Positions 37,326-52,873 of a stretch of DNA of 57,271 bases are shown here, one piece after another. Positions within the stretch are counted from its first letter, which is position 1. Each line of letters opens with the position of its first letter. Under the pieces are notes generated by a model. The model was given only the letters and a program-made list of their open reading frames with translations. It ran no database searches and was not told the origin of the DNA. Origin of the DNA: Actinomycetota bacterium (GTDB lineage: Bacteria; Actinomycetota; Acidimicrobiia; IMCC26256; JAGPDB01); assembly GCA_963169585.1 (NCBI GenBank), contig CAUJDU010000036.1, forward strand, positions 1 to 57,271, given 5' to 3'. The position numbers and the translations under genes are program-made.

Positions 37326-37690
37326 TGGTGGAGGTGGGGGGTATCGAAACCCCCGTCCCTTGAGCCCTTTCATGAGCCTTCTCCGAGCGCAGTGTCTGGA
37401 AAGTTTTCGAATATCTGGGCGCCAGTCACACGCATCCAAATACCTAGTTAACTAAATATGTCCTCGTAAGTAGCTAACGCCTTACGGAGCAAGCACCGTA
37501 GTTGAACCCAGTGCGGCGACGGTGCCTGCCGCTTTGGGCACTGCTTAAAACTAATTAAGCAGCTAGTGCGTAGTTGGAGCTTTCGCTCTCATCTGTTGCA
37601 TTTATTATGTTTACAGACTCTTTAACGACAGTCTGCAACGTCGGCTCGCTTCTCTCACGGCTAAGTACAAGGTCGAAACCAAGCACCCCC
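37326..37690 (-). ncRNA. ssrA: tmRNA (SsrA)
   Basis: 5' GGGGGTGCTTGGTTTCGACC and 3' GGGGGTTTCGATACCCCCCACCTCCACCA on the minus strand. Tag ORF GCA...GCT GCT TAA (37599-37555) encodes ATDESESSNYALAA. Lies adjacent to smpB. Confidence 0.9.
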
Positions 37691-46694: not shown

Positions 46695-47057
46695 ATGGCA
46701 ATGCGGTATGACTGTAAAAACTTTGATTCGCGTAGTTATGCGACCGGTGAAGTTGTCCGAAAATGTAGGCTTGATTTAGCTCCAAACGCTCCATGGGAAT
46801 GTCCAGAGGATTGTTTGGGATTTGAGAAGCGTACAGTTGATGTTGGTTGGGATTATGGTTCTTTAGCCACTCCGATTGTAACTCCTGTTGATGGAGTGCA
46901 AGGAGTAGATAAAAATAGTGCAGCGAAAGCTTTAGATGAAGCTGAAGATATTGTTAATGCAATTACGCCAGAACTTTTAGCTGAATTTAAAGCTTTAGAT
47001 CAAGCCGCTAAGAAAAAGAAGAAAAAACGTTTTGGTAAGAAAAAGAAAAGAGATTAA
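46695..47057 (+). CDS. Hypothetical four-Cys protein with a poly-lysine C-terminal tail
   Basis: Cys at residues 7, 24, 36 and 40. C-terminus AAKKKKKKRFGKKKKRD. Abuts rpiA with no gap. Confidence 0.5.
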   Translation: MAMRYDCKNFDSRSYATGEVVRKCRLDLAPNAPWECPEDCLGFEKRTVDVGWDYGSLATPIVTPVDGVQGVDKNSAAKALDEAEDIVNAITPELLAEFKALDQAAKKKKKKRFGKKKKRD

Positions 47058-48782: not shown

Positions 48783-49392
48783 TAATAATCGAGAAGCGAT
48801 TTCTAAAATCTCGCAAGCGAAAGTTCCAACTTCTTGGGGGGATTTCATCTGCCATGTTTTCCAAAGCAAAATAGATGCAATAGAACACCTAGCTTTTGTT
48901 AAAGGTGATGTTGAAAATAATGAAAATGTTCTTGTTCGTATACATTCTGAATGTATTACTGGAGATATTTTTCATTCCAGAAAGTGTGACTGTGGAGACC
49001 AGTTGGGTAGAGCAATGGATGCAATCGCTAAAGATGGTGGCATATTTATATATTTGCGCGGACATGAAGGTCGTGGCATTGGGATTGGTGCAAAGATAAA
49101 AGCTTATAGTTTGCAAGAACAAGGCTTAGATACAGTCCAAGCCAACGAGGAACTCGGTTTCCCAGTTGACGACAGGAACTACGAAATCGCGGCATTGATT
49201 CTGCAAGAATTTAAGGTTGGCTCTATTGAGTTAATAACAAACAATATGAACAAGGTTGAAGAAGTCGAAAGTTTTGGAATAAAAGTAGCGAAAAGGATAT
49301 CTTTAATTCCTAACATCACAAATGAAAACCTTTCTTATCTAAAAACCAAAAATGCGAAACTTGGACATTTAATTGAAGGTGTTGACAGTTAA
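48763..49392 (+). CDS. ribA: GTP cyclohydrolase II, monofunctional (no RibB domain)
   Basis: RIHSECITGDIFHSRKCDCGDQL, 209 aa; overlaps ribD by 20 nt. Confidence 0.9.
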   Translation: MDIMTISNNREAISKISQAKVPTSWGDFICHVFQSKIDAIEHLAFVKGDVENNENVLVRIHSECITGDIFHSRKCDCGDQLGRAMDAIAKDGGIFIYLRGHEGRGIGIGAKIKAYSLQEQGLDTVQANEELGFPVDDRNYEIAALILQEFKVGSIELITNNMNKVEEVESFGIKVAKRISLIPNITNENLSYLKTKNAKLGHLIEGVDS

Positions 49393-50516
49393 TGTCAGAT
49401 GCTTTTATCACTGCTTTTGGAGAATATCTTCCTGGAGAGCCTGTTGATAACGATCACATTGAAGATTTTATAGGAATTATCGGTGATCAAATTTCTAAAT
49501 ATAAGAAGATGGTGTTACGACAAAACAAAATTGTATCCAGACATTATGCGTGTAATAAAGATGGGCAATTTGAGTTTACGGTTGCACAAATAGCAGCTAA
49601 AGCAATTGAAGATGCGATAGATAACTCGCAAGCAGATATTAGTGATCTTGAGTTCCTGGCAACAAGCTGTTCTATCCATGATTCAATTATTCCTGGGCTG
49701 GCATCTTTAGTACACGGACAACTTGGGGCTGATCGCATTGACATTTCAAGCCATCAAAGTGTTTGTGGTAGCTCAATTATGGCCATGCGAAGTGCAGTAA
49801 ATGCAATACGATTAGAAGAATTCAAGCTGGCGTGTGTATCAGGGTCAGAAATTGCCAGTAGACATTTTCGTCCGACATTTTACGAAGGAACGCAACACTT
49901 TAAACAAGAAAATGCATTACCTCTAGAACAAGAATTTTTACGATACACACTTTCTGATGGTGCAGGTGCAGCAATAATTGAGTCTCGTCCAAATGTAAAT
50001 GCTATTTCATTGAAAGTTAAATGGATCAAAGCCCGTTCGTTTGCCAATAGATTTTCCACCTGCATGATTGGTGGTGCGATAAAAGAAGAAGGAAGGGTTA
50101 TTTCTTGGGGAAACCAGGAAAGTCTACAAGCGGCTATTGAAAAAGGGTGCTTTGCTTTATCTCAAGATCTAAAACTCGTATATGAAATGATCCCTGTTTG
50201 GGTGGGTCATTATCTATCGTTAGTCGAAGACGGGCTAATTGATCCAGAGAAAATCGACCACGTAGTAAGCCATTATTCATCGGAAAGTTTAAAGGCAGAA
50301 GTTGTTAAACTGTTAACGAAAGCTGGCGTAATGATCGATGAAGAAAAATGGTTTTCTAATTTAACTTATAAAGGAAATACTGGGTCTGCTTCAATTTTTA
50401 TTTTACTTAACGAATTATTCTATTCGGGCAAATTAAAAGTGGGCGATAGTGTTCTTTGTCATGTCCCCGAAAGTGGACAGGCTTATAATTCATTTATGCT
50501 TTTGGAAGTTGTGTGA
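49392..50516 (+). CDS. KAS III (FabH)-like thiolase-fold condensing enzyme of unknown specificity
   Basis: Cys-His-Asn candidates in SVCGSS, VSHYSS and KGNTGSAS. TAATG overlap with ribA. Confidence 0.8.
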   Translation: MSDAFITAFGEYLPGEPVDNDHIEDFIGIIGDQISKYKKMVLRQNKIVSRHYACNKDGQFEFTVAQIAAKAIEDAIDNSQADISDLEFLATSCSIHDSIIPGLASLVHGQLGADRIDISSHQSVCGSSIMAMRSAVNAIRLEEFKLACVSGSEIASRHFRPTFYEGTQHFKQENALPLEQEFLRYTLSDGAGAAIIESRPNVNAISLKVKWIKARSFANRFSTCMIGGAIKEEGRVISWGNQESLQAAIEKGCFALSQDLKLVYEMIPVWVGHYLSLVEDGLIDPEKIDHVVSHYSSESLKAEVVKLLTKAGVMIDEEKWFSNLTYKGNTGSASIFILLNELFYSGKLKVGDSVLCHVPESGQAYNSFMLLEVV

Positions 50517-51184
50517 AAATGTCTAGCGAATCTGTAATGCGTAATTTATTGATTGTCTGGACAGATTTTGAATCACGTTTAAACACTGTTCCTATAATGA
50601 AAAAATTAAATAATGGTCGATTTAGCATTGAAGATTATAAAGAGCTATTAGTCAATCACCGCCAGCAAGTTGTTGAAGGGTCTAGATGGATTGCACGTGC
50701 TGCTTCAAGCATTACGTCGGATTATCTTGAACAACGTTCGACCTTTTTAAAACACAGTGTAACTGAACATAGAGACTACGAAATGTTAGAGAACCAATTT
50801 TGTGCAATTGGTGGAACACTCGAGGAAATCCGAAATGCTCCTAAAAACATTGGTACTGAAATATTTCATTCTTATATGTACGAACAATCAAGCCAGCAAA
50901 ACCCGTTTCATCTGCTTGGATCAATGTTTATAATTGAAGGTTTAGGACAAAGGAAGGCTAAACGCTGGGGTTTAGCTATTAAGGATCAACTTGATTTAGA
51001 CGACAAAGCAGTTGAGTTCTACATCTATCATGGAGACAACGATCCAGAGCATATGGAAGAATTCGAACATAGCTTGAATTCAGGAATTTTAGAAATAGAG
51101 TCAATGGGCGAAAAGATAGTTAAGACGGCAAAGATCACTGCTTTACTTTATGAGCTGCAGTTGCGTGAGATTGGAAACTATTGA
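50513..51184 (+). CDS. Heme-oxygenase-like fold protein (iron-containing redox enzyme family), candidate diiron oxidase
   Basis: All-helical 223-aa ORF with Glu/His candidates on separate segments (E55, E85-H86, E142, H173, D177/E179-H180). Overlaps the KAS III gene by 4 nt. Confidence 0.55.
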   Translation: MKMSSESVMRNLLIVWTDFESRLNTVPIMKKLNNGRFSIEDYKELLVNHRQQVVEGSRWIARAASSITSDYLEQRSTFLKHSVTEHRDYEMLENQFCAIGGTLEEIRNAPKNIGTEIFHSYMYEQSSQQNPFHLLGSMFIIEGLGQRKAKRWGLAIKDQLDLDDKAVEFYIYHGDNDPEHMEEFEHSLNSGILEIESMGEKIVKTAKITALLYELQLREIGNY

Positions 51185-51768
51185 TGGATAATAGACTTGA
51201 GATGCTAGTTCTCAATCTAATTCTGTTTGTTATTTTACCACTTTGGGGTTTTTCTGGTTTGTGGGATTGGTGGTGTCACAAAAAATCTAACATCGAGAAA
51301 ACATCTGGTCTTAAAGAATCATTGATCCATGCATTAATGGGTATACAAATTGCTATTCCTATGCTTATCGGAATATTTTTTCAATTTTCGGTTTTAACAT
51401 ATTTGATAATGCTTGCATGTTTAGTTTCTCACGAAGTGGTTGCACATTGGGATGTTCATTATTCGGCACCTAAACGAGAGATAACTATCTGGGAAATGCA
51501 CGCACATAATTATTTGGCAACTATCCCTTTGTATCTGATCGCGTTGATAAGTGTTTTGGGTTGGGAAACGGTAAAGGATACTTTTACTTTGCAATGGTCA
51601 GGATCAATGTATTTTCGACTACGAGATGTTCCAATAGGTGGAGATAAATATTATGTAATATATGGTGTTTTTATTGCATTGGTTTGTGGCTTCCCTTATG
51701 TAGCTGAAATACTACGTTGCTTAAGACATAGGAAAAAGGTAGGAAAAGATGGCAGTGTCACAACGTGA
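51181..51768 (+). CDS. Small polytopic membrane protein with clustered histidines
   Basis: ~4-5 TM helices. His motifs WWCHKK, LIHAL, SHEVVAHWDVHY, EMHAHNY. Overlaps the upstream gene. Confidence 0.55.
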   Translation: MMDNRLEMLVLNLILFVILPLWGFSGLWDWWCHKKSNIEKTSGLKESLIHALMGIQIAIPMLIGIFFQFSVLTYLIMLACLVSHEVVAHWDVHYSAPKREITIWEMHAHNYLATIPLYLIALISVLGWETVKDTFTLQWSGSMYFRLRDVPIGGDKYYVIYGVFIALVCGFPYVAEILRCLRHRKKVGKDGSVTT

Positions 51769-52600
51769 TTTTGAAAGCCCATATATAAAAGCAATACTTA
51801 AAGATAGATCTTTACCGATCGCTGATATTGCTGTTGGGATGTGGGTCAAGGATTTGAAAGGTCCATTACGTTTGGTTGTTATGCCTGTATTGCGGGTGAT
51901 GCTATCGGGATTACTAATTTTGATATGGACTATTAAGAGGGCGTGCCCGATACAATTTAGTTCTCATAACAACTTACAAAAATTAATTTGTTGGTTTTGT
52001 GAGAATTTTGTGACTCCAGAAGCTAATTATTTAATTTTGCGACACTTCTGGGCAGAGTCAAATATCATCAATTTTTTGATTGATAACGAAGATCCACAAG
52101 CACCAGATTCTGTTGATGAGATTGCTCCGCTTGAACTATATCCGGATACGATAGCACAGATGATGCAAGCAAGTTTTGTTGATCACGATCAAGAACTTTT
52201 CCGATACTTTAAAGAATCTAGTTCTACGCCAGTTAAGAAGCCGCTAAAGAAGGCAGATTTGAAATGGGATAATTGGAGAGAGATTGATATTGATGAAAAT
52301 GTTTTGAAAGGAAAACCTACACAACGAATCGATTTTGAAACAGCACACGTGTTGTTCATGTGTATATTCTGTTTATTTTTAACAGCTGATGAATATCGTG
52401 CAGCAATTAACGGTTTTAATTTAGATCAGTCAATGGCAATTCGTATAGGAGCGATTATTGGCGATAGTTCAGTTGAAACTTATGCTTACAATAAACATCC
52501 ACTGTATTTATTAGGTCCGATCGATTTAACACGTAGATTTATTTTGCATGGATTTTTTACGGAGTATATGCACGAGCGACTTTTGCAGGAGAAGAAATAA
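51749..52600 (+). CDS. Hypothetical protein (orphan) with one or two hydrophobic segments
   Basis: 283-aa ORF overlapping the upstream gene by 20 nt. I recognise no motif. Confidence 0.5.
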   Translation: MAVSQRDFESPYIKAILKDRSLPIADIAVGMWVKDLKGPLRLVVMPVLRVMLSGLLILIWTIKRACPIQFSSHNNLQKLICWFCENFVTPEANYLILRHFWAESNIINFLIDNEDPQAPDSVDEIAPLELYPDTIAQMMQASFVDHDQELFRYFKESSSTPVKKPLKKADLKWDNWREIDIDENVLKGKPTQRIDFETAHVLFMCIFCLFLTADEYRAAINGFNLDQSMAIRIGAIIGDSSVETYAYNKHPLYLLGPIDLTRRFILHGFFTEYMHERLLQEKK

Positions 52601-52659: not shown

Positions 52660-52728
52660 CACTCACTTGTATTTAATTCCGCGTTGGCGGGAGTTTCATG
52701 ACATATACGCACGGAATTAAATAGAGTG
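52660..52728. other. Long-stem hairpin between the cassette end and tRNA-Leu
   Basis: atttaattccg (52671-52681) pairs with cggaattaaat (52712-52722). An outer cactc (52660-52664)/gagtg (52724-52728) pair extends the stem. Confidence 0.4.
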
Positions 52729-52737
52729 CGAGCGGAG
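52721..52737. repeat. Direct repeat of the tRNA-Leu 3' end plus flank
   Basis: atagagtGcgagcggag (52721-52737) versus atagagtAcgagcggag (52785-52801), 16 of 17 nt identical. Confidence 0.6.
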
Positions 52738-52790
52738 ACCTGAATTGTTGCAGTCCCTGAGGGTTGGAGTCCCTCTTAGTCTTTATAGAG

Positions 52791-52873
52791 TACGAGCGGA
52801 GGGACTTGAACCCTCACGTCCAATGGACACTAGGACCTAAACCTAGCGCGTCTGCCAATTCCGCCACGCTCGC
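52791..52873 (-). tRNA. tRNA-Leu, anticodon UAG
   Basis: Hand-folded cloverleaf. Acceptor GCGAGCG/CGCTCGT, anticodon arm CTAGG-TTTAGGT-CCTAG, long variable arm GTCC-ATT-GGAC, T arm GAGGG-TTCAAGT-CCCTC, discriminator A. CCA is not encoded. Confidence 0.9.

Follow-up and report, generated by a model that had tools for sequence, protein, structure and literature searches.

A conserved four-gene bacterial cassette combining a StlD/DarB-like ketosynthase with a candidate heme-oxygenase-like dimetal oxidase and two protein families that lack a characterised relative

Ketosynthases of the DarB/StlD type join a beta-ketoacyl thioester and a 2-enoyl thioester to give a carboxy-cyclohexanedione, and decarboxylation accompanies aromatisation by DarA/StlC (PMC6836626). 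Some DarB-type clusters, namely those of the brt type, have no acyl carrier protein (ACP) of their own and take acyl-ACPs from primary metabolism; 'DarA-less' DarB homologues, the products of which are unknown, also exist (PMC6836626). Among the heme-oxygenase-like dimetal oxidases (HDOs), UndA is the enzyme of an oxidative decarboxylation, and the family includes fatty-acid decarboxylases that coordinate the carboxylate of their substrate (PMC7848743). Here we describe a cassette of four genes that places a relative of the former enzymes beside a candidate member of the latter. The cassette occupies positions 49392-52600 of a 57,271-nt stretch of DNA (hereafter the window; contig CAUJDU010000036.1 of assembly GCA_963169585.1) from a low-GC (39.5%) Acidimicrobiia lineage. 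Its genes, all on the forward strand, encode in order a StlD/DarB-like ketosynthase, an HDO-like protein, a membrane protein with five transmembrane (TM) helices and a protein of the Pfam family DUF6999. The four open reading frames (ORFs) are chained by overlaps of 4 nt, 4 (or 1) nt and 20 nt, and the ORF listing reproduces the coordinates and overlaps that had been given in an earlier note on this DNA.

The four genes form a real conserved unit. Relatives of DUF6999 occur in 234 GTDB species, and we fetched 80 loci from these genomes. When the window proteins were used as tblastn queries, all four genes were found adjacent in 75 of the 80 loci. Three of the other five are cut by contig ends, one lacks the ketosynthase (L010) and one has no gene for the five-TM protein immediately upstream (L030); the ketosynthase itself is present and adjacent in 77 loci, and contig ends account for two of the three loci without it. 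The carriers are found in Gammaproteobacteria, Burkholderiales, Myxococcota and Acidimicrobiia. The genes run in the order five-TM protein, ketosynthase, HDO, DUF6999 in the Gammaproteobacteria (Rheinheimera, Arsukibacterium, Colwellia, some Shewanella, Nitrincola, Reinekea, Salinispirillum, Woeseiaceae, Steroidobacteraceae and others), in one Burkholderiales metagenome-assembled genome (MAG) and in the Myxococcota, and in the order ketosynthase, HDO, five-TM protein, DUF6999 in the Acidimicrobiia group. Clustering of the flanking ORFs of at least 90 aa showed that only these four families are common to the loci and that there is no fifth gene; in particular, the flanks of the fetched loci share no conserved gene for an ACP, a thioesterase, a reductase or a transporter, in agreement with what had been noted for the window. 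Co-occurrence of the four genes had been named beforehand as the test on which the idea of a cassette should stand or fall, and the idea survives it across phyla. Each ORF has hundreds of homologues, and the four are found together in 75 of the 80 independent loci, which excludes a chance arrangement. A full-text literature search found no description of the cassette, as the earlier note had also maintained of any pathway of this composition, but most subscription journals lie outside that search and a publication could be missed.

Several individual loci depart from the common layout or add to it. Pseudoalteromonas sp. THAF3 carries an intact copy on an 801-kb replicon, annotated as hypothetical, KAS III, iron-containing redox enzyme and hypothetical; a gene for a 634-aa hypothetical protein follows the DUF6999 gene on the same strand after 27 nt (L089 6861-8765) and is not conserved elsewhere. 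The Nostoc flagelliforme plasmid pNFSY08 (L088 6795-9507) holds a decayed cassette that lacks the five-TM gene and for which the PLSDB gene table gives no annotation. There the ketosynthase ORF runs into the start of the HDO, the HDO lies in another frame and is frameshifted again near residue 187, and DUF6999 is recognisable for the first ~150 residues only; the remnant stands 580 bp downstream of a cytochrome P450 gene. In a Myxococcota MAG (L007; 3601-5535 and 8738-9709) the cassette is split into divergent units: the genes for the five-TM protein, ketosynthase and HDO are followed by an acetyl/acyl-CoA-synthetase-like gene, and DUF6999, on the other strand, is followed by a fatty-acid desaturase. 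L010 (3041-7436) keeps the HDO and DUF6999 with a short remnant resembling the five-TM protein on the opposite strand, adjoins an MMPL/RND-type transporter, and is the only fetched locus that misses the ketosynthase for a reason other than a contig end. The lipid-related neighbours in L007 and L010 weakly support a lipid pathway. Lastly, the cassette proteins of L004 (CAZLQP010000003.1) and L006 (CAYMMG010000005.1) are 68-82% identical to those of the window, the G+C content of these loci is 41-44%, and L006 has the rpiA, aminotransferase, GNAT and csp neighbours of the window; the RNase PH of the window, moreover, is at least 90% identical to a protein named 'Acidimicrobiia bacterium', and the label 'uncultured Burkholderiales bacterium' that both loci carry looks doubtful.

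The first gene (49392-50516, + strand, 374 aa) encodes what is, by homology, a head-to-head ketosynthase of the StlD/DarB type with the fold of beta-ketoacyl-ACP synthase III (KAS III). It aligns end to end with the StlD structure PDB 5gk0 (230 bits, E = 3.6e-67), and its identity to StlD over the full length, 33-40%, is as near as that of cassette ketosynthases of different phyla to each other. OleA structures match it at E ~1e-4 only, and FabH models at no more than 76 bits. The earlier note had predicted a condensing enzyme with an intact Cys/His/Asn triad. This is borne out: C125, H294 and N329, together with E153, are at least 97% conserved among 78 cassette ketosynthases and align with identical residues of StlD in 5gk0, where the counterpart of E153 is presumably the additional active-site Glu of StlD. 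The curated models are less accommodating. The window protein scores 346.9 bits on NCBIfam NF005293 ('StlD/DarB family'; cut-off 450) and 306.6 bits on the DarB model NF053539 (cut-off 550), and six other cassette ketosynthases score 335-398 bits on NF005293. The decayed Nostoc copy, at 450.3 bits and thus just at the cut-off, is the sole exception among the cassette members scanned. As controls, the dar ketosynthase of Burkholderia pseudomallei reaches 600 bits and one from Prevotella 492. The cut-off is likewise missed by a ketosynthase from Streptomyces (382 bits) whose locus also encodes a DarA-like protein and an ACP. In a neighbour-joining tree of 85 sequences, which is star-like with internal branches near zero, the cassette ketosynthases are not separable from DarA-linked ones.

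The second gene (50513-51184, + strand; start GTG 50513 or ATG 50519) encodes a candidate dimetal oxidase of 223 aa. The protein passes the gathering score of Pfam PF14518 Haem_oxygenas_2 (37.4 bits against 28.9), and its relatives in L002 and L003 carry the same match. HDO ligands are a Glu and a His on core helix 1, a Glu on helix 2 and a His-x3-Asp/Glu-x2-His motif on helix 3 (PMC7848743). In the oxidase family E55, H81, E85, H86, D88, E142, H173, D177 and H180 are invariant candidate ligands. Run against the PDB, a profile of 27 family members finds only 3dde (E = 6.8e-9), an uncharacterised entry from structural genomics, and, at the margin, MboA (9ypi, E = 0.024). In the alignment with 3dde, E142 and H173/D177/H180 pair with the E, H, D and H of that structure, and E85 pairs with its Glu on helix 1. 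The first ligand helix reads H81-x3-E85-H86-x-D88, in which H81 and H86 are invariant alternatives for the His of helix 1, and the H-x3-D-x2-H spacing of the last is that of SznF core helix 3 (H311/D315/H318; PMC7848743). E55 is a possible counterpart of the extra 'N-oxygenase' carboxylate. The prediction of a heme-oxygenase-like diiron candidate thus fared well, with one correction to its ligands: E55, E85, H86, E142, H173 and H180 are conserved as claimed, E179 is not, and D177 is invariant instead. A non-metal enzyme of the TenA/PqqC type was considered and rejected, as the protein keeps at least three His and at least four carboxylates at the ligand positions and gives no TENA_THI-4/PqqC Pfam match at E <= 1. 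Its Pfam score and most of its ligand motif make the protein a member of the HDO superfamily, and it appears to belong to no characterised HDO subfamily.

The third gene (51181-51768, + strand, 195 aa; start TTG, with an ATG 3 nt later) encodes a membrane protein whose superfamily carries no annotation. It matches no model of Pfam or NCBIfam, its family profile retrieves nothing meaningful among PDB sequences, and Foldseek returned no PDB match with E < 1 for its AlphaFold2 model, which has five long helices and a predicted local distance difference test (pLDDT) score of 94. An exhaustive profile search returned 937 representative clusters at 50% identity, 579 of them at E <= 1e-10, and the superfamily is therefore far bigger than the cassette alone would explain. 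Across 123 divergent members, D29, H33, E46, H50, H84, D91, R99, E105 and H109 are at least 98% conserved; at a threshold of 90%, and with members down to 23% identity, P20, W22, G26, I38, G43 and P116 join these nine. In the model the conserved residues gather near the same ends of TM1-TM4, at most one or two helical turns away. Since D29/H33, E46/H50 and E105/H109 are spaced i/i+4 and H84/D91 i/i+7, each His/carboxylate pair would lie on one helical face. The loops on the side of the conserved site hold 13 Lys and Arg against 5 on the opposite side, which suggests that the site is at the cytoplasmic face. This arrangement of four His and four carboxylates is the layout expected of a putative dimetal or other metal-binding site, and we consider a membrane metal site in this protein plausible.

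The same protein had been likened in the earlier note to membrane desaturases and hydroxylases on account of clusters resembling His boxes. Part of that description stands, in that H84, H89, H107 and H109 are invariant in the cassette family, and part does not, in that H93, the His of the 'HY' cluster, is not conserved. The likeness to desaturases goes further than we can follow. Membership of the His-box families was judged by a match to FA_desaturase or FA_hydroxylase together with the eight His of the boxes HX3-4H, HX2-3HH and HX2-3HH. Throughout the superfamily the only universal His are H33, H50, H84 and H109, with no HH doublet, and a Pfam scan of 50 relatives and 10 distant ones gave noise, save for FA_hydroxylase at E = 0.11 in 2 of the 50; the assignment is therefore not supported. 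Four distant homologues that we examined are stand-alone genes in unrelated neighbourhoods, so that context transfers no function to the cassette protein. Two of the four adjoin metal transporters, of the Cation_efflux/CDF and Nramp families (L085 4007-4915 and L086 5694-7004), which hints at a metal-related role for the superfamily. Many family members of 190-260 aa (P0128, P0134, P0141, P0157, P0235, P0411 and others) are labelled 'diguanylate cyclase' by NCBI; as neither GGDEF nor any other Pfam domain is detectable in them, the label is probably a propagated misannotation.

The fourth gene (51749-52600, + strand, 283 aa) had been described as an orphan with no recognisable motif. This can no longer be maintained, as its product is a full-length member of Pfam DUF6999 (PF22523), matched at 273.4 bits against a cut-off of 27 over residues 10-282 of 283, and has at least 616 homologues of 49-92% identity in the protein collection. 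We know of no function assigned to DUF6999, and the family went unmentioned in the full-text literature search. The AlphaFold2 model (pLDDT 89, predicted template-modelling score 0.88) is all-helical, and the hydropathy profile shows one strongly hydrophobic helix at residues 39-63. In an alignment of 80 sequences H73, E91, H99, E103, H146, D147, D195, E197, H200, D226, H267 and E272 are at least 97% conserved, as are the cysteines C81, C84, C205 and C208; in an alignment of 60 sequences E91 and C205 are at 90-99%. Searches of the PDB with the sequence and with the family profile gave no match, and Foldseek with the model gave none with E < 1. The HDOs AetD and PolF recur among the insignificant fold matches (E 2-5, template-modelling score ~0.13), which we regard as a lead only. 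Comparison by hhalign of the DUF6999 protein with the oxidase, and of the five-TM protein with the DUF6999 protein, indicated no relation.

For comparison, we recovered two dar-type plasmid loci (L090, L093). The B. pseudomallei locus encodes a 318-aa protein, the 600-bit ketosynthase and an ACP, and the Streptomyces locus encodes an ACP, a ketosynthase and a 321-aa homologue of the 318-aa protein; the DarA-like proteins of the two loci are 36% identical to each other. When the DarA-like proteins and ACPs of both loci were used as tblastn probes, they gave no match in the 1.38 Mb that the window and all cassette loci make up, and we therefore consider the cassette to be both DarA-less and ACP-less.

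Based on these observations, we propose that the cassette makes an oxidised, fatty-acid-derived, membrane-associated small molecule by a DarA-independent pathway resembling those of dialkylresorcinols (DARs) and cyclohexanediones (CHDs). We offer this reading tentatively and give it somewhat less than an even chance. First, the ketosynthase would take beta-ketoacyl and 2-enoyl thioesters from primary lipid metabolism, as its homology suggests, and join them head to head by Michael addition and Claisen condensation to a carboxy-dialkylcyclohexanedione. The oxidase, as an O2-activating HDO, could then replace DarA/StlC and aromatise this intermediate to a resorcinol by oxidative decarboxylation or desaturation, in chemistry of the UndA type. 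Finally, and more speculatively, the five-TM and DUF6999 proteins might act on the lipophilic product in a further oxidation, hydroxylating it to a hydroxyquinone-like lipid or desaturating its chains, or might instead link the oxidase to a membrane supply of electrons or metal. We propose these steps because the chemistry of DarB/StlD is described and because oxidative decarboxylation by UndA is an established HDO reaction; only the first, which is based on homology, has real support, and the other two we infer. That both the five-TM and the DUF6999 protein combine hydrophobic helices with invariant sets of His, Asp and Glu speaks for the proposal.

A number of observations weigh against it. 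All the cassette ketosynthases scanned from the genome loci fall below the 450-bit StlD/DarB cut-off, and the review of these enzymes argues that DarA-less homologues may not make carboxy-CHDs (PMC6836626). The ketosynthase is the least conserved of the four proteins, at 36% identity between Acidimicrobiia and proteobacterial members compared with 44-55% for the other three, and it is missing from L010; because of these two facts, the core function may lie in the trio of HDO, five-TM protein and DUF6999. In the oxidase, the position of the core-helix-1 His of 3dde is taken by the invariant Asp D88, so that the ligand set is non-canonical. Save for the marginal match of MboA, no sequence similarity to a functionally characterised HDO was detected when the family profile was compared with the PDB, and the type of reaction is for this reason a guess. 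Moreover, the distant homologues of the five-TM protein stand alone, in two cases beside metal transporters, which is as compatible with an accessory function or the handling of metal as with catalysis.

Some of these points are better accommodated by other readings. The same four proteins could perform a different chemistry, in which the head-to-head product is not cyclised, being a 2-alkyl-3-keto acid or an alpha-pyrone as made by enzymes of the OleA, CorB/MxnB or PpyS types; the HDO would decarboxylate it in the manner of UndA to a long-chain ketone or olefin, and the membrane proteins would then desaturate or hydroxylate the product. The sub-threshold scores of the ketosynthases, the lack of an aromatase in the set, the suggestion in the review that DarA-less DarB homologues have another reactivity (PMC6836626) and the existence of HDOs that decarboxylate fatty acids by coordinating their carboxylate (PMC7848743) would all be in keeping with such a route. 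However, the ketosynthase aligns with StlD over its full length, keeps invariant the residue that pairs with the extra Glu of StlD, and is only distantly matched by OleA structures, and we regard this chemistry as unlikely, though well worth bearing in mind. Equally, the ketosynthase may be no more than a replaceable supplier of acyl substrate, and the remaining trio a membrane-bound, multi-component, O2-dependent oxidase acting on a membrane lipid or quinone, in which the five-TM protein, the DUF6999 protein or both would pass electrons or deliver metal to the HDO, as partners of a kind that HDOs are not otherwise known to have. HDO cofactors are unstable and need external reduction (PMC7848743), the trio is better conserved than the ketosynthase, and L010 retains the HDO and DUF6999, beside an MMPL transporter, with the ketosynthase gone; furthermore, the star-like ketosynthase tree is compatible with exchange of that gene, and the superfamily of the five-TM protein extends far beyond the cassette, sometimes adjoining Cation_efflux or Nramp genes. 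Yet the ketosynthase stays adjacent in nearly all loci, there is no fusion or other direct sign of a complex, and the conserved residues of the two membrane-associated partners would suit catalytic sites equally, so that we think this, too, improbable without dismissing it.

A more far-reaching form of the same idea holds that the trio is an unrecognised membrane oxidase, the five-TM protein a new integral-membrane dimetal class and DUF6999 a new metalloenzyme fold, which with the ketosynthase would yield a new class of redox-active lipid, such as a resorcinol or a dialkyl-hydroxyquinone, in Gammaproteobacteria of the sea and of fresh water, in Myxococcota and in streamlined Acidimicrobiia; we find this doubtful as a whole. 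Quite unlikely, in our estimation, is a product that serves as a diffusible signal of the CHD/DAR class, as in Photorhabdus, instead of as a structural or redox lipid. The CHDs and DARs of DarB-type enzymes do act as signals in some bacteria (for example PMC7154725), and the cassette is small and self-contained, but neither a LuxR-type nor any other receptor gene is conserved beside it, the two membrane-embedded, oxidase-like proteins are absent from known DAR signalling systems, and the cassette sits among housekeeping genes in streamlined, low-GC, planktonic-type Acidimicrobiia genomes. The last possibility stems from the earlier note, which had taken the cassette to be coupled to ribDA and had suggested a product of the pyrimidine/flavin branch. 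In the window the ketosynthase gene does share 1 nt with the stop codon of the gene before it, that for GTP cyclohydrolase II, and ribD lies just upstream, as might be expected if the cassette used or modified an intermediate of riboflavin or the pyrimidine branch. However, ribD and ribA adjoin the cassette in the window only, and neither is near it in the 80 genome loci or in L001-L003; in L006 the cassette follows aminotransferase, GNAT and csp genes instead, which in the window are on its other side. Because the window is a tightly packed run of same-strand housekeeping genes (rph, rdgB, rpiA, ribD and ribA), we believe that the overlap reflects compaction. The linkage is accordingly rejected, the idea of a pyrimidine/flavin-branch product falls with it, and we hold such a role to be very improbable indeed.

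The surroundings of the cassette contain few other features. A tRNA-Leu(tag) gene lies on the opposite strand at 52790-52873, 189 nt past the stop codon of the DUF6999 gene. The duplication of its 3' end that had been reported is present as a 17-nt direct repeat with one mismatch, the copies being 64 nt apart (52721-52737 and 52785-52801), and an 18-nt inverted repeat (52758-52775 / 52799-52816) pairs the spacer with the T-arm region of the tRNA. The repeats at the end of the tRNA gene may be the remnant of an integration or rearrangement event. We nevertheless reject an origin of the cassette as a horizontal island, since its G+C content (0.36-0.39) is that of its surroundings and the duplication of the tRNA end does not bracket it. 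An Rfam scan found no riboswitch or other RNA near the cassette, and a scan for promoters and terminators gave counts at or below the shuffled expectation. Elsewhere in the window, a tmRNA gene on the - strand (37326-37690), unrelated to the cassette, encodes the tag peptide ATDESESSNYALAA, and an ORF of 120 aa between rdgB and rpiA (46695-47057) has several early Cys and the lysine-rich tail KKKKKKRFGKKKKRD.

If our proposal is correct, the cassette represents a widespread, aromatase-free route to lipids derived from alkylresorcinols or cyclohexanediones, for which DUF6999 would be a marker gene in at least 234 species of four or more phyla. It would also give DUF6999 and a large unannotated family of five-TM proteins their first biological context, extend the heme-oxygenase-like dimetal oxidases by a new subfamily and perhaps by a new reaction, and might reveal the membrane partners that supply HDOs with electrons or metal. 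As the carriers include cultured and tractable bacteria (Shewanella, Colwellia, Rheinheimera, Pseudoalteromonas and members of the Halomonas group), the system is within reach of experiment.

How, then, does the cassette compare with the systems that have been described? In its first step it would work like the dialkylresorcinol, cyclohexanedione and bacterial stilbene pathways of darABC/stlCD: its ketosynthase is homologous to StlD over the full length, shares the catalytic residues of that enzyme and, like DarB, stands alone without elongation partners. In contrast to the two dar loci that we recovered, which have both, the cassette has neither a DarA-like aromatase nor an ACP, and for that reason it is not a cluster of the dar/stl type; its ketosynthases fall below the curated cut-off, and their partners are an HDO, a five-TM protein and DUF6999. 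With the bartoloside (brt) clusters it shares a DarB-type ketosynthase that has no dedicated ACP, and a Nostoc plasmid carries a decayed ketosynthase-HDO-DUF6999 copy; what sets brt clusters apart is their DarA, their glycosyltransferases, their CylC halogenase and their exporter, all of which the cassette lacks. Similarly, the oxidase resembles the HDOs (UndA, BesC, SznF, CADD, FlcD/E, AetD, PolF and MboA) in passing the PF14518 threshold, and SznF and CADD in particular in its invariant middle-helix Glu and the H-x3-D-x2-H of its last ligand helix, but its detectable relatives in the PDB are limited to 3dde and, marginally, MboA, and it has an Asp on helix 1 where 3dde has a His. The five-TM protein recalls the membrane diiron enzymes (the His-box families, AOX, PTOX and Coq7) by its pairs of His and Asp/Glu, which four successive TM helices all carry at the same end. 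It differs from the His-box families in having four universal His instead of eight and no HH boxes, and from membrane diiron enzymes in its i/i+4 spacing, which is not ExxH, and in giving no fold match. The DUF6999 protein is a typical full-length member of its family at 273 bits. Two of the four proteins, the five-TM and DUF6999 proteins, thus have no characterised relative and no fold match in the PDB, and there is a real chance that the trio they form with the HDO is categorically new. Compared with all of these systems, the cassette would appear to be a lipid-condensing pathway of the DarB type whose set of partner proteins is without precedent.

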